A DNA stretch of 29,427 nucleotides from IMG/VR virus record IMGVR_UViG_3300048590_000053, positions 1 through 29,427 of that record. One strand, given 5' to 3'. This document shows positions 22,881-28,662 of the stretch, piece after piece (position 1 is the first letter of the stretch; each line of letters opens with the position of its first letter). A program made the position numbers and the translations under genes. This stretch comes from a virus (taxonomy: Duplodnaviria > Caudoviricetes). Under the pieces are notes generated by a model that made no database searches, was not told the DNA's origin, and was given only the letters and a program-made list of their open reading frames with translations.

Positions 22881-24473
22881 TTAGGCAATCTCGTAGGTGC
22901 CGTAAAGACGGATGGAGTCGCCACTGGCCCACGTTTCTGGTGCGCTTGCACTCAGGTCCGCGTAGTGGCTTGAGCCGTCAATGTAGTAGATGTTCACTGA
23001 CGTACTCGTGGCGTACGACCACACCCCCGGCCAGGCGTAGTTGGGTTGCAACCGAGCGTTCCCCATCGCGCCTGCATAAGAGATCGACAATGGCAATGTG
23101 ACAGTCACGGCCCCCGTCGGCGCTGCTGACAGAGTGCCGGAGATGGTGAAATCGCAATGCTTACCCGTGCGGGTGTGCCTGGCGGTGGTTGACGACATCG
23201 ACACGTTCGTCCATGTCGGCGCAGGTGATGCGATCCACCGACCTTCGTAGTCCACCAGCCAGTCCGTGCCCTCAGCGTTCGTACCGGGGTCTGTAACCCG
23301 CCTCCACAACAACCCTTTCAGTGAGCCGTGGGACGCGTTGGCGTCGGTCTGCCGCCACGTTGAGCCGACGGGGGCGCTGATACCGGACGGCCCGCCCGTG
23401 CCGACCATGATGCGGGGGCCGCTGGAGCCGAACTCCAAACCGGCAGTCGAGCCGACGTCGCCGAAGGTGATCTTGCCGGTAGCCCGGTTGATCGTGATGG
23501 GGTACGACAGCCCAGAGCCATCATCGGCGCGGCGGTACAGCCGGAAGTTGGAACCGGCGTTACTGCCGGACTCTGCCTCGTTCGTCTTTTGGATGATCCA
23601 TCGCTCATTGCCGCCGGAACGTAGGCGCACATCCGTGGACACGCCTGCATTGGCGTTGGCGACAAGCATTGAACTCGCCGCTCCGCCGTCACCGAACAGT
23701 GTCCCCGCGAAGTAGAGATTGTTGACACCCTGGACAGTGTTGTTATCCGCAATCGTGACGCCACTGTTTTGAATAACACCATTTACCCCATCAAATCTAG
23801 CGATGGCATTGTCTGTTGAAGTAGGCTTTGATACTTTTGAACCAAGATCACTCACCAAGTTGGTTACCGCCGACTGCGCAATGGAGATATCAATTGCTGA
23901 CCCTATATTAGTAACACGTCCCTTGGTATCTACTGTAAATGGTCTCACTTGACTTGCAACATTGTTGTATGTACCGGAACTTACGCCAGAGTTAGCCAAC
24001 GAAAGCGCTATTGACGTTTTACCTGAACCGGAAACATCACCACTCAGAGTAATGGTTTCATTAGAAGTAAGATAGTTGTTGGTATCAAATGTCCATGTGT
24101 TGGGGGCAAGTTTTTTCAGTACCCCGGTTCCATTGAGGTCTGCTATCGCTTGTAAATCTGAGTCCAGTACATACGGTGGGGTTGTACTGTCAATATTGTC
24201 TACAATGCGTACCCATTCATACCCACTACCTGCGGCTCTCCACTCCCAGTATGAGAGCAGTCCGGTACTTCTTTCGATGAATATGTCACCAGGGATGAAC
24301 TCTGTGTACCCCCCGAAGAACGGACTATTAGCAGATAGTGTATTAGGAGGTGCATTGCCAGTGAATGTTCTCGTACCCCGTTGACCTGGGGTACCTACGC
24401 CTACTTGAAGATCAATTTGACGAACGTTGCCTGCAACAGTAATCTCATTAGTTGCAACTATTACTTCGGTCAT
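22881..24473 (-). CDS. Mosaic fibre protein
   Basis: 530 aa; ITLSGDVSGSG, VDTKGRVT and STDNAIARFDG fibre motifs; high-GC C-terminal half. Confidence 0.8.
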   Translation of the reverse strand: MTEVIVATNEITVAGNVRQIDLQVGVGTPGQRGTRTFTGNAPPNTLSANSPFFGGYTEFIPGDIFIERSTGLLSYWEWRAAGSGYEWVRIVDNIDSTTPPYVLDSDLQAIADLNGTGVLKKLAPNTWTFDTNNYLTSNETITLSGDVSGSGKTSIALSLANSGVSSGTYNNVASQVRPFTVDTKGRVTNIGSAIDISIAQSAVTNLVSDLGSKVSKPTSTDNAIARFDGVNGVIQNSGVTIADNNTVQGVNNLYFAGTLFGDGGAASSMLVANANAGVSTDVRLRSGGNERWIIQKTNEAESGSNAGSNFRLYRRADDGSGLSYPITINRATGKITFGDVGSTAGLEFGSSGPRIMVGTGGPSGISAPVGSTWRQTDANASHGSLKGLLWRRVTDPGTNAEGTDWLVDYEGRWIASPAPTWTNVSMSSTTARHTRTGKHCDFTISGTLSAAPTGAVTVTLPLSISYAGAMGNARLQPNYAWPGVWSYATSTSVNIYYIDGSSHYADLSASAPETWASGDSIRLYGTYEIA

Positions 24474-24838: not shown

Positions 24839-25114
24839 CTAAACTTCTTCGTAGTCACCGAATTCTGTTTCGTCTACGGGAAGTTCAGGTTCTTCAAGTC
24901 GCTCTACTGTAGCGGGGGCATATACTGATCCACGAGTCAACTCCCCCTGCAAAATAGGAACAACTACTACCAAGAATGCAATCAGACTAGTCACTGTTGC
25001 ATCCACTTCTGTAGTTACTGATACTCCAAGAGTACCAAGCAAAGCGATTACTGCAATCCATACCGCCCGAAGTCGGGCTGGCTCAAATTTGTTAAGCCAT
25101 GTGAATTTATCCAT
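24839..25114 (-). CDS. Putative holin / two-TM membrane protein
   Basis: 91 aa; two hydrophobic segments (AVWIAVIALLGTLGVSV; VTSLIAFLVVVVPIL) and a charged C-terminus. Confidence 0.6.
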   Translation of the reverse strand: MDKFTWLNKFEPARLRAVWIAVIALLGTLGVSVTTEVDATVTSLIAFLVVVVPILQGELTRGSVYAPATVERLEEPELPVDETEFGDYEEV

Positions 25115-25120
25115 AATGCT

Positions 25121-25129
25121 ATTGTATCA
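25121..25129 (-). promoter_or_regulatory. Leaderless extended -10 promoter TGATACAAT
   Basis: 6 nt before ATG 25114. Confidence 0.8.
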
Positions 25130-25156
25130 TAGATTACAGGCGGCGCTGCCAATAAC

Positions 25157-25351
25157 TCACGTCGGCAGTGTCGCAGATGTCCATGTTCCGGCGTAGGCGT
25201 CCGCGATGGACTGCTTACCGACCACCGCCCACTGAATCTGGTCGGCCCCGCCCAGCGGATGCGGGTCGGTGCGCCCTAGCGATGACAGGCACCCGGCAAT
25301 CCGGTTGCGGAGGTCTCCGTTGGTGGCGGCTGCTGCGATATCGGCGTACAT
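25157..25351 (-). CDS. Small fibre-associated protein, probably truncated
   Basis: AAGGAG SD; high GC; MYADIAAAATNGDLRNRIAGC resembles small proteins found after actinophage fibre genes (recalled, not searched). Confidence 0.55.
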   Translation of the reverse strand: MYADIAAAATNGDLRNRIAGCLSSLGRTDPHPLGGADQIQWAVVGKQSIADAYAGTWTSATLPT

Positions 25352-25388
25352 GATTCTCCTTGAGGGTTAGGCGGCTAGCGTTGGGTGT

Positions 25389-25499
25389 GTGGACATGGAT
25401 GCGCTGTTGCGGCTCACCCCAGCGATACGGGAGACGGTGCTTGACCTGGCGTTCGCGGACCCGTGGCCGGAAGTGCTACCCGGTAAGCCGGTGGTCTGA
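25389..25499 (+). CDS. Candidate 34-36 aa peptide resembling the fibre C-terminus
   Basis: (VD)MDALLRLTPAIRETVLDLAFADPWPEVLPGKPVV*; TAGCGT -10 at 25376-25381, 7 nt before GTG 25389; GC3-rich codons. Confidence 0.45.
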   Translation: MDMDALLRLTPAIRETVLDLAFADPWPEVLPGKPVV

Positions 25500-25503
25500 C
25501 GCA

Positions 25504-26931
25504 TCAGACGGCCACCCCTGGTAAGGACGAGGGCCAGGGGTCGATCGTTGTGTAAGTGAGTGTGCCGCGTGGAGCCTTGCCCACGACGGGTGTCAGCTCC
25601 AGACTTGCGCCAGAACTGGTGTTTACTGCGCCTTCAAATACCCCCGCCGCGCTAAACATCGCGTGCCGGAAGTCAGTCACTAACGCCGCATAACGGAATC
25701 CGGTCGGTGTTGCGTAGACGCCAGAGCCAGACGCCGACCCGCCTCCCGCCCACGCGAACCGCCACGCGACAACGCCTCCGATACGCCGCAGGTGGACCTT
25801 GACCGCTGAAACGCCCGTCCAGCCGGATACGTCCCCGCTCACATCCCGCCACCTGGTGTCGGCTTCCGGCCCAGCGACCCAGCCGGTGTTCCCGGTGCCG
25901 GTGGCCTTCACCCAGCGAATCCAGCCCTTCACGTCGGTGGTGGAGTCGGTTTGCAGGAACGCCGAGCCGGGCGGGGCGGCGATCACACCCTCGGGGACTC
26001 CGGTGCCGGACAGATCGACGGCGTTGTTGATGGCGATGTGACTGCTGCCGACCACCGGGGTGCCCGGCATGGTCCAGGTGCCGCCCGCGCCGACCCAGTA
26101 CCCAATATCGTCGGTGTAGAACGTCCCCGCCTGGGGTGTCGTGCCGGTGTCCAGAAAGACCGTCGCGTCAGTGACACTCCCCGCGCCGACCTCGCCTGCC
26201 GTGGCGGTGTGCTGCACCGTTGTCCACACACCGGCAGGGACCGTGACCGTCTTCGCGCTGTTGATGTACCCTGCGGCTGTTCGGAAGATGCCCACGCGAA
26301 GCGTCAGTTGCGTAGTCGCGTAGACCTTCGCCTGGACTGTGACTGTGGCATATCGATACAGCGGCAGCGTGGCGGTCGTCGTCCATCCCTGGTATGTGGA
26401 AACACCGTCGGAGACACACTTCAGGGCGCGGCTTCCACGGTAGGCGTAGTCGGTGCTGCTCGTCAGCGTGCCGCCCGCCGACTGCGGTGCGAACCCCGTC
26501 GTGTCCCCAAGCGTGTCCGTGCCGCTGGCCTGGTTCGCGGTGAGCAGGTTGCCGATCCGAAACACGTTCAGACCGCTCGCCTGCGTGCTGTCGTAGCCGA
26601 TCAGGGTGCCGTCCGCGCCCGCAGGCAACCGGCCCACCGTGTCGTTCGCAGTTCCTACAATCAAATCACCTTTTGCATCTACTAATGACTTTGCAATGGA
26701 TACCGATTGAACATGACTTTCAACAAAAGACTTGTTAGCCGCATGCCCCGCTACTGTGGGGGTAGGAACATTGGGGGATTGACTGAAGTTGACTAATCCT
26801 GTAACACTGCCCCCGGTGGTAGCCAGCATTTTAGCATCTACGTCTTGTGCTAGGTTCTTTACATCATCGGGCACTGCAACTGGTCCGGTATATTCAGGAT
26901 ATCTCAGTGCATGGTTAGTAGTTGTTCCCAC
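25504..26931 (-). CDS. Mosaic fibre / minor tail protein with carbohydrate-binding-like domain
   Basis: 475 aa; TTNHALRYP anchor, KGDLIVGTA motif, GNLLTAN...GSRALK CBM-like segment, GTGVPEGVIAAPPGS...GNTGW module. Confidence 0.8.
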   Translation of the reverse strand: MGTTTNHALRYPEYTGPVAVPDDVKNLAQDVDAKMLATTGGSVTGLVNFSQSPNVPTPTVAGHAANKSFVESHVQSVSIAKSLVDAKGDLIVGTANDTVGRLPAGADGTLIGYDSTQASGLNVFRIGNLLTANQASGTDTLGDTTGFAPQSAGGTLTSSTDYAYRGSRALKCVSDGVSTYQGWTTTATLPLYRYATVTVQAKVYATTQLTLRVGIFRTAAGYINSAKTVTVPAGVWTTVQHTATAGEVGAGSVTDATVFLDTGTTPQAGTFYTDDIGYWVGAGGTWTMPGTPVVGSSHIAINNAVDLSGTGVPEGVIAAPPGSAFLQTDSTTDVKGWIRWVKATGTGNTGWVAGPEADTRWRDVSGDVSGWTGVSAVKVHLRRIGGVVAWRFAWAGGGSASGSGVYATPTGFRYAALVTDFRHAMFSAAGVFEGAVNTSSGASLELTPVVGKAPRGTLTYTTIDPWPSSLPGVAV

Positions 26932-26946: not shown

Positions 26947-27109
26947 CATGTTTGATGAGCCAGTTGTGGACATACCCGTGCTTAAGCACACACCTATTGT
27001 CGATATTCGGCAGCAAAGTCACTTTTGTTGTTTGGAAGGTTTTGTCATGATTATCGTTGTTTTCAAGGTCTTATCGTACTTTAGATACACGTATTCTACC
27101 CCCCCGTGT

Positions 27110-27472
27110 GTGTTCCCCAAGACAGTAGGGATGGGGAAAATACTTTTCCTGTCTTGCCAGTGAGTTTTTCAATCTTGTTACGGTTGCGTCCTCCTGGTCA
27201 CACGAGCACAACTTCACGGTCCTAGTGCATTCACTAGTAGTTTCTTTAGTTTTCAGGTGGTGAGTCTGTCAGGCCAGGAGGAACGGAAGGTACACGATGA
27301 AACGGGTAAAAGATCGCTGGCCTCTATGAATAACAAGACAACTCATAGAGCAGGTACCTTCCGCTGCGAGAGATGGTATGAGTTTCTCCAAACCCACCTT
27401 CAACTGGTTCTATGTACGCACCTCTCAGAGCCAGGCTAGTCGTTGTCGGGACAAGTCAACCTAGACGACGGT
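27110..27472 (-). ncRNA. Candidate large structured RNA, family not recognised
   Basis: Own promoter, no credible ORF, at least seven helices of 6-11 bp; wobbles read as G-U only on the minus strand. The 3' end is uncertain. Confidence 0.6.
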
Positions 27473-27478
27473 AACTTT

Positions 27479-27487
27479 ATTGTACCA
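27479..27487 (-). promoter_or_regulatory. Extended -10 promoter TGGTACAAT (no ORF downstream)
   Basis: Exact motif; predicted +1 at ~27472. Confidence 0.7.
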
Positions 27488-27489
27488 CA

Positions 27490-27539
27490 TGCAAGATTCC
27501 CCCGCCATTCGTGGGTGCGACACGAACAACGAGGGAACT
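27490..27539 (-). ncRNA. Candidate ~50-nt hairpin RNA
   Basis: Uninterrupted 17-bp stem (4 G-U) with 7-nt loop at 27497-27537, starting 2 nt after the predicted +1. Confidence 0.55.
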
Positions 27540-27545
27540 ACGTCT

Positions 27546-27554
27546 ATTGTACCA
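27546..27554 (-). promoter_or_regulatory. Extended -10 promoter TGGTACAAT (no ORF downstream)
   Basis: Second copy of GTGGTACAATA, 67 nt from the first. Confidence 0.7.
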
Positions 27555-27592: not shown

Positions 27593-27760
27593 ATGCTCAC
27601 AACATGTAACCGTAAGGCATGCGACCTTACCACAGACATGCCAGACAGCGATTGGTTGTACGTCAAGCAAGGCCATGGAATCTTTGAGGATCATTGGTCA
27701 TTTTGTTCTTGGCGGTGTATGAGTATGTATGCTACCGAATACCGCCCATCATTTATGTAG
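27593..27760 (+). CDS. 55-aa putative treble-clef Zn-finger protein (not in ORF track)
   Basis: MLTTCNRKACDLTTDMPDSDWLYVKQGHGIFEDHWSFCSWRCMSMYATEYRPSFM*; Cx4C...FCSxxC; leaderless promoter; ends 9 nt before the next gene. Confidence 0.7.
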   Translation: MLTTCNRKACDLTTDMPDSDWLYVKQGHGIFEDHWSFCSWRCMSMYATEYRPSFM

Positions 27761-27769
27761 AGGAACACT

Positions 27770-28000
27770 ATGCTTATTAGATCAGACATTCTAGAACTAT
27801 ACATTGAGCCACCAAGGGTGCCGCTCGACACAAGCAAGATTGCAGACGCACGCTTCTATGCTGAAGTCGAACTTGTTGACGGAAGAGCATTTAATGGGTA
27901 CGTAGAGGACCACAGTTATATGCATTTAGACACAGACTTCGTATCAATTAAAATCAATACAGATACAGGTATCGTTACAATCGAAGGGTACAAGGTATGA
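27770..28000 (+). CDS. Hypothetical protein
   Basis: 76 aa; GAGGA SD; ATGA-coupled to thyX. Confidence 0.7.
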   Translation: MLIRSDILELYIEPPRVPLDTSKIADARFYAEVELVDGRAFNGYVEDHSYMHLDTDFVSIKINTDTGIVTIEGYKV

Positions 28001-28662
28001 CAGGATATGTAAAACTAGTAAGAGTTGACGGCACGGAACTGGATATTGTCAATAGTGCCAGGCTATCTTACAACAAGCAATCAACAACATTGAGTGATGC
28101 AGACAGGAAACTCATTAGGTTCCTCGTCAGAGAAAACCACACAAGTCCATTCAGGCACGTCCACCTATCACTAGAGTTTAAGGCTCCACTGATTGTCGCA
28201 CGACAGCACTGGCGTCATATTGTCGGGGCAAGTACATTAGAGGACGGTACTCCATTTAGTGAACTTTCCAGAAGATATGTTCGTGATGATGAAGAGTACT
28301 ACATGCCGACAACGTGGCGTACTGCGCCTGCTAATAGCAAGCAGGGAAGCGGAAAAGATATAACTGATGCGGAAACTATTGCCTTGATCAATGAACTATA
28401 TTCAGACTTTATCGAATACGGTGATAATCTATATCATAGGTTGATGGATTTGGGCGTAGCACCTGAGCAAGCCCGTCTAGCGCTACCGGCATACTCACTG
28501 TACACAAAGTATTTGTGGACTCCATCACTTCACGCCGCCATGAACTTTGTCGATCTTCGTCGTGCATCTGACGCGCAGGCAGAAATTAGAGAGTACTCAG
28601 ACGTGGTAGAGGGTATGATTAAAGATAACTTTCCGACTGTGTATGAGGAATGGACAGCCTAG
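27997..28662 (+). CDS. thyX: Flavin-dependent thymidylate synthase
   Basis: IVNSARLSY, HTSPFRH, APLIVARQHWRH, SELSRRY, NSKQGS, EQARLALP, AQAEIREY. Confidence 0.95.
   Translation: MTGYVKLVRVDGTELDIVNSARLSYNKQSTTLSDADRKLIRFLVRENHTSPFRHVHLSLEFKAPLIVARQHWRHIVGASTLEDGTPFSELSRRYVRDDEEYYMPTTWRTAPANSKQGSGKDITDAETIALINELYSDFIEYGDNLYHRLMDLGVAPEQARLALPAYSLYTKYLWTPSLHAAMNFVDLRRASDAQAEIREYSDVVEGMIKDNFPTVYEEWTA

Follow-up and report, generated by a model that had tools for sequence, protein, structure and literature searches.

What function resides in the stretch at which gene direction switches in this phage DNA? The window, by which we mean the whole stretch of 29,427 nucleotides that was analysed, is a phage contig of 29.4 kb. 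Its minus strand carries the genes for portal, protease, capsid and ribonucleotide reductase, its plus strand those for ThyX and HNH, and the capsid protein shares 45% identity with Streptomyces BE-cluster phage capsids. DNA nearly identical to it was detected in runs of wastewater, sludge, freshwater, marine and groundwater origin, of which four DNA and four RNA runs were examined. On the divergent side of the junction, the 55-aa ORF region has a DNA homolog in contig L121, and three clusters were found for the 76-aa protein. Within the tail-related genes, the segments 22900-23500 and 25100-26600 are GC-rich (58-67%, versus 46% for the genome) and one RNA-run contig skips 22794-24308, which together suggests exchangeable cassettes. 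At the junction itself, the initial annotation had placed a candidate novel structured non-coding RNA, on the minus strand and behind its own promoter, at 27110..27487. The features of the locus are given below, in the order in which the minus strand is read.

27593..28662, plus strand: divergent genes, namely a 76-aa ORF, ThyX and a likely 55-aa ORF
27546..27554, minus strand: upstream putative promoter motif of the extended -10 type, an exact 9-mer match
27496..27538, minus strand: leader hairpin lacking a U-tract, at the site where homologs have a short leader RNA and a terminator
27479..27487, minus strand: second promoter motif (9-mer match), immediately 5' of the element
27094..27472, minus strand: structured element (module A) of about 375 nt, proposed origin transcript, from covariance model and profile matches
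27259..27398, minus strand: alternative 10-bp helix 27389-98/27259-68, from complementarity; its probability in the nested ensemble is 0
27283..27364, minus strand: 11-bp helix 27354-64/27283-93 around the hairpin 27322-27350 and a pyrimidine tract (27299-27311)
27172..27339, minus strand: long-range pseudoknot between the hairpin loop 27332-27339 and 27172-27179, from covariation
27222..27237, minus strand: small hairpin 3' of an A-rich linker, from the predicted fold
27183..27212, minus strand: hairpin with the invariant loop motif CGUGUGAC...GAGG (27190-27204)
27118..27156, minus strand: 3' hairpin with a variable loop (98% paired; two-sided change in 6 of 7 pairs)
27099..27105, minus strand: G-run, 7 G here and 7-10 G in homologs, proposed anchor of an RNA-DNA hybrid
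27075..27098, minus strand: AT-rich stretch 3' of the G-run, proposed zone of unwinding and of the RNA-to-DNA switch
25504..26931, minus strand: first gene in a long block of leftward genes (tail-related, RNR, portal, capsid, tape measure)

The element is real and longer than initially flagged, since it continues past 27110 to the conserved G-run and occupies approximately 27094-27472 of the minus strand; homology of its 5' part was read by eye from alignment A6. The promoter-like 9-mer on which the claim of an own promoter was based is found, exact, at 27479-87, and its spacing would place the transcript start near 27472. The count of this 9-mer is not enriched (12 matches at no more than one mismatch, versus 8.5 expected), and at least 6 of the 12 matches are located in gaps, immediately 5' of either a gene start or the element. 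The 9-mer of 27546..27554 also heads the homologous unit in the satellite-like contig L209.

As noted at the outset, the element is not recognisable as a tRNA, tmRNA, RNase P or intron. Specifically, Rfam 15 (6S/Ms1, tmRNA, RNase P, introns, riboswitches, GOLLD, ROOL and raiA) gave no hits on the window apart from weak sub-threshold ones, and ARAGORN found no tRNA or tmRNA in it. Neither an Rfam match nor the core motifs were found for tmRNA, RNase P, group I and group II introns, T-box, cobalamin riboswitch or 6S/Ms1, all of which were rejected on these grounds; phage MulchMansion has a separate, annotated tmRNA. On 11 other loci, Rfam found only tRNAs. Sequence look-ups retrieved no look-alike of the element, and no description of it emerged from literature searches on the Stanwilliamsviridae replication origin and on the satellites.

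Homologs of the element were identified in large phages (19 named Streptomyces BE-cluster phages and three further contigs) and also in the satellite MulchRoom and two contigs that resemble it. A BLAST search with the window tract gave no match among cultured phages, and the link came via contig L117: nhmmer matched the 3' half of the element to an intergenic region of L117 (E 1.8e-5), and L117 in turn gave a match to phage StarPlatinum (E 5e-15). With Jay2Jay as the query, 31 records were retrieved, comprising 25 from Streptomyces (the 19 named helpers and MulchRoom among them) and six short unrelated matches, and a motif scan of viral contigs gave nine loci, four of them new. With the window left out, covariance model R3 matched 27094-27278 (52.7 bits, E 2.1e-17) and a 13-row profile matched 27099-27309 (E 3.5e-9, versus 2.8 for the reversed control). 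A full-length profile of 12 Streptomyces rows, not including L117, missed the window in 1.86 Mb; the window is therefore a divergent member, whose 5' third is aligned by eye only. No convincing match emerged from 50 related contigs, three of them near complete (best E 0.02), exact-pattern scans for the element were empty, and loci picked by ThyX, capsid or a 116-aa gene contained no homolog of it. A 15-base pattern occurred at 52 loci, only the L117 contig being a homolog; 15 pattern matches in cellular genomes failed the model and were taken as chance.

The folding z-score, suggested initially as a check, is at chance level for the whole flagged region (-0.53 on the minus strand, with 33 of 100 shuffles as good, and -0.67 on the plus strand). 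For seven family members, whole-region values lie between +0.2 and -2.6, and such scores are uninformative for this element. Among 10 sub-windows, chosen after the fact, strong stability was found for 27280-27366 (z -4.9) and for the leader hairpin region, 27485-27545 (z -3.7 on the minus and -1.6 on the plus strand), and two more reached about -2.

Comparison of the homologs delineates a conserved fold. In an automatic alignment of 14 sequences, 41 pairs in eight helices show 96% paired cells and two-sided changes at 33 of the 41, versus 36-43% paired cells and 5-9 such pairs in the slid control; these figures are optimistic, because the helices were selected from the same alignment on which they were scored and the sequences amount to only about seven lineages by eye. 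The pseudoknot (columns 179-186 with 341-348) has 97% paired cells and two-sided changes in 6 of 8 pairs, and the invariant-loop hairpin (columns 307-313 with 332-338) is 99% paired, with two-sided changes in 6 of 7 pairs and its loop motif unchanged in 14 of 14 sequences. Both structures, together with the 3' hairpin, are retained with different letters in the window and L117, and the stem arms of the 3' hairpin are identical to those of MulchRoom. In addition, the architecture of 27283..27364 recurs in the homologs as family helices 2-5, and a hairpin of different sequence takes the place of 27222..27237.

The helices listed in the initial annotation are all present and all belong to the predicted fold, and part of them is conserved; the family fold adds to them the pseudoknot and one hairpin. 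In the automatic alignment they are 58% paired, versus 96% for the family helices, a figure that is unfair to helices 27354-64 and 27341-50 because the middle of the window row is misplaced. Helices 27419-26/27368-75 and 27379-96 find no clear support in the homologs (36% and 18-61% of cells paired, respectively), while helix 27274-82/27189-97 has a counterpart in L117 with one compensatory change and 64% paired cells family-wide. The alternative helix 27389-98/27259-68, which competes with two of the 5' helices proposed initially, is possibly homologous to the outer helix of the family. A first closing stem, 27466-75/27177-90, was dropped because it competes with the covarying pseudoknot and hairpin.

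Strain variation was compared in four DNA runs, one of which spans the whole stretch. Just one of 25 substitution sites in 901 bases lies inside 27146-27540; this sole change in the core, at 27327 within 27283..27364, converts a U-A into a U-G pair. Near the leader hairpin a single substitution (27542) was observed across the four runs. In one strain nine loop bases of the 3' hairpin are deleted and the stem is retained, the G-run is longer in two strains, and the AT-rich stretch 27075..27098 differs between strains. Common to all 14 sequences is the end of the element, where G7-G10 is followed by AT-rich DNA (A/T at 8 of the 12 bases after the G-run in the window, and at 10-12 of 11-12 in homologs). 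Within the first 120-123 kb, this G-run is the only run of at least 7 G/C in 6 of 6 helpers with module A, and no such run exists in 5 of 5 genomes with module B, described below.

The wobble cells over the 41 family pairs, 29 G-U versus 3 A-C, indicate that the folding strand is the minus strand in the window, as had been argued from the wobbles at first. In conclusion, these data bear out the proposal of a novel structured RNA insofar as an uncatalogued, conserved and covarying single-strand structure lies behind a promoter-like motif; covariation is compatible with either RNA or single-stranded DNA.

The satellite MulchRoom, according to PMC10690885, has capsid and packaging genes and no replicase or primase; the available texts of PMC10690885 and PMC13587820 name no origin for satellites. 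Between MulchRoom (14.8 kb) and its helper MulchMansion (134 kb), the element is the only nucleotide match at E no higher than 0.05 (273 nt, 72%, E 5e-32), and in MulchRoom module A lies within a 1-kb gap. The element is also the best match to helpers in the two MulchRoom-like contigs, L299 (G053, 14.8 kb) and L300 (G054, 13.3 kb), which carry terminase, portal, capsid, integrase and Lsr2 genes. In these contigs, possibly incomplete, none of 35 ORFs scanned (38 called) matched primase, helicase, polymerase or Rep families, and 10 of the 35 were without any match; additional ORFs follow the capsid gene in L299, and one of them gives a weak minor-tail match. Neither module was found in the satellite MiniFlayer, whose helper has module B, and the helper-satellite match of modules is therefore not general. 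The largest intergenic gap of MiniFlayer (L220:11500-11910) holds promoters and terminator-like hairpins and neither module.

A sequence common to helper and satellite, and located 5' of virion genes in the window, could be a packaging RNA or packaging signal. We consider this highly improbable, as the satellites have terminase, portal and capsid genes of their own, which lack DNA similarity to those of the helper, and the element is outside the terminal repeats.

The locus is flanked in BE phages by the divergent glycosyltransferase-RNR block on one side and by small leftward genes on the other. Module A occupies 7 of the 23 BE loci read and a second module, B, the other 16, the two never occurring together (6 A and 13 B in the first 19 loci, 1 A and 3 B in four more). 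Module A is single copy in each positive record (12 of 20, the other eight being seven B phages and MiniFlayer). When close A/B genome pairs (84-99% identity) are compared, the locus is unaligned in 5 of 5, and one pair is 99.2% identical with just three unaligned stretches; no ORF tracks the allele in the five pairs (ATG-started ORFs of at least 45 aa in the first 120 kb, six reference genomes). Module B (L191, L194-L205, L221-L223), likewise uncatalogued, measures about 210 bases and combines an AT-rich core with what seems to be a pseudoknot of its own and as many as three mini-hairpins of DNA type. Its perfect hairpins have G..A loops in 33 of 43 cases on the bottom strand and in none on the top strand, with none in Coruscant; in 4 of 5 B genomes three of them are clustered in a stretch of about 60 bases, whereas elsewhere such loops are scattered. 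PMC13037366 describes hairpins of this type as much more stable in DNA form and places them at the G4 and RSF1010 priming sites. In module A, G..A loops are found in 3 of 18 hairpins, two of them downstream of the G-run; MulchRoom and L214 have one such mini-hairpin each, downstream of the G-run. A candidate for a third type of origin is found in a related contig that lacks module A (L009:8420-8720), where an AT-rich tract with short repeats rich in A is accompanied by a C-rich hairpin.

In the window and in 10 of 11 helpers, the cumulative GC and AT skews reach their minima no more than about 2 kb from the locus, the Mandalore record having its minimum elsewhere; these minima are not independent evidence, because gene direction switches at the same place. 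The satellite, allele-swap and skew evidence would fit equally well an origin in which the fold acts as single-stranded DNA, loading primase or helicase like G4 or ssi sites, with transcription at most opening the duplex. The DNA-type loops of module B, and the terminator that precedes the element in BE phages, agree with this form of origin. We nevertheless regard it as unlikely, given the near absence of G..A-loop hairpins from module A, and since the 29 G-U cells, the long-range pseudoknot and the promoter directly 5' in the window would suit RNA better.

Promoter and element are separated by a terminator in BE phages and satellites; there, either read-through must be assumed or the DNA form of the origin holds. 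The leader 5' of module A or B (L183, L188-L205, L207, L209, L214, L215) consists of a promoter, a variable-loop hairpin and a terminator hairpin with a complementary loop. Loop sequences co-vary between phages; an automatic scan without shuffle control counted complements of at least 6 nt in 11 of the 23 leaders, inspection by eye suggests more, and the leader is possibly an attenuator or incompatibility switch. In L117 (5075-5390), two more promoter-like sites and a structured leader ending in a UUCG terminator stand ahead of the module. The leader-hairpin loop of the window (27514-27520) has a 6-base complement within the element (27417-27422) and resembles the Jay2Jay leader loop, both of which may be chance. 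The hypothetical ORFs Jay2Jay 45 and Bmoc 39 and the tRNA-Arg EGole 42, annotated over modules or leader (coordinates among L189:668-832, L197:710-1024 and L196:797-891), are probably annotation artefacts.

This arrangement, and the fact that the element heads co-directional genes in every context read, recall a cis-acting transcription leader, that is, a put- or EAR-like antiterminator or attenuator for long operons through which satellites would sense the helper. It is doubtful that this is its role: the element comes after, not before, the terminator, and the downstream genes differ in kind: they form a virion block with promoter motifs of its own in the window, are small and of early type in BE phages, and encode endonucleases in satellites. 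A leader function would also leave unexplained the G-run and the exchange with a DNA-hairpin module.

Metatranscriptome coverage, the remaining check suggested initially, yielded in each of four RNA runs one low-depth contig over part of the element (2.9-4.3x). The resulting evidence for transcription is weak, because depth is low and, for three of these runs, similar depth is seen elsewhere in the phage. In run X16, 27177-27445 is the only clean contig of the phage (15 kb examined); position 27445 was rejected as a 5' end, as the RNA contig ends there in one study only. A stable trans-acting RNA, such as the polymerase or protein decoy or the anti-defence RNA suggested at first, would agree with the X16 contig, with the promoter motif and with an elaborate RNA-like fold bearing an invariant loop. 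However, a helper would supply such an RNA to its satellite, yet the satellite retains its own copy; in addition, the unit ends at the G-run with no closing terminator, its depth in the RNA runs is low, and in other BE phages a module with DNA-type hairpins takes its place. We therefore judge a trans-acting RNA improbable, and the trans roles together, packaging RNA included, less likely than a cis role at a replication origin.

An origin is the best reading of the locus because the element is single-copy, non-coding, self-contained, kept by satellites devoid of a replicase and exchangeable with a DNA-hairpin module. We start from what is observed for module A, namely conservation, a covarying fold and its strand, the G-run, one copy per genome, presence in satellites and module exchange. 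Taking RNA and DNA forms together, module A is probably an origin; by analogy with ColE1 RNA II, the chances are about even that it is a self-contained one whose transcript serves as an R-loop primer. A match to the replication origin had been listed as refuting the RNA, but the two are compatible: what works within the origin may be the RNA itself.

According to PMC6317783, the transcripts of ColE1 (RNA II) and of mitochondrial CSB II are hybridised at a G-rich stretch and processed to a primer, the ColE1 origin lying downstream of the G-rich stretch needed for R-loop formation. Module A would resemble RNA II as a non-coding folded transcript with a G-rich stretch 5' of the proposed start of DNA synthesis, and no dedicated initiator gene tracks it in the five pairs. 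It would resemble CSB II (PMC6317783) in the succession of promoter, transcript, G-run and proposed transcript priming. It differs from RNA II in that Rfam gives no sequence match, in being pseudoknotted and in residing in lytic phages with their own replisome, where an R-loop would form; no equivalent of RNA I or Rop was noticed at module A. ColE1 RNA II is about 555 nt long, versus about 320-375 nt for module A. CSB II has a two-tract G-run, whereas that of module A is a single run of G7-G10. The T4 oriF/oriG R-loop origins are similar to the proposed mechanism in their AT-rich unwinding zone and in priming by a transcript. Neither CSB II nor oriF/oriG is known to have a counterpart of the conserved 300-nt upstream fold. 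Mini-hairpin priming sites (the G4 origin, RSF1010 ssiA and the N4 promoters, PMC13037366) are similar to module B and to two satellite flanks, on one strand, whereas module A of the window has no G..A-loop cluster. GOLLD, ROOL and raiA are likewise phage-borne, multi-helix, pseudoknotted and covarying, but the element has no Rfam match, ends in a G-run and is common to satellites.

Transcription would begin at the adjacent promoter in the window, or proceed by read-through of the leader terminator in BE phages, and folding of the transcript would leave the 3' G-run free; all later steps are likewise inferred. The transcript would stay hybridised to its template, forming an R-loop at the G-run and the AT-rich DNA, from which the phage replisome would be primed or its helicase loaded, and satellites would run the element on the replisome of the helper. 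Helpers encode their own primase, and a primer made by RNA polymerase is therefore not required; a shared phage initiator protein is possible although no ORF tracks the allele. As a broader and tentative proposal, which we hold to be possible rather than probable, module A may exemplify a new class of portable, protein-independent RNA origins of large actinophages, in which a pseudoknotted preprimer swaps with a DNA-hairpin origin between phages that are otherwise near-identical and is captured by satellites devoid of a replicase, and a leader with variable, complementary loops and a terminator would license firing.

In conclusion, the element belongs to a real, uncatalogued structured family and is most likely a transcript-primed origin of a new variety. 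Should the origin idea fail, an uncatalogued pseudoknotted family with strong covariation would still stand. If it is true, BE-type phages would gain a mapped origin, with two exchangeable origin types at one locus, and Streptomyces an infection-triggered replicon. For MulchRoom, the element is a precise origin candidate in cultured phages, directly testable, and the origin reading, if true, would explain how satellites without a replicase borrow the copying machinery of their helper.
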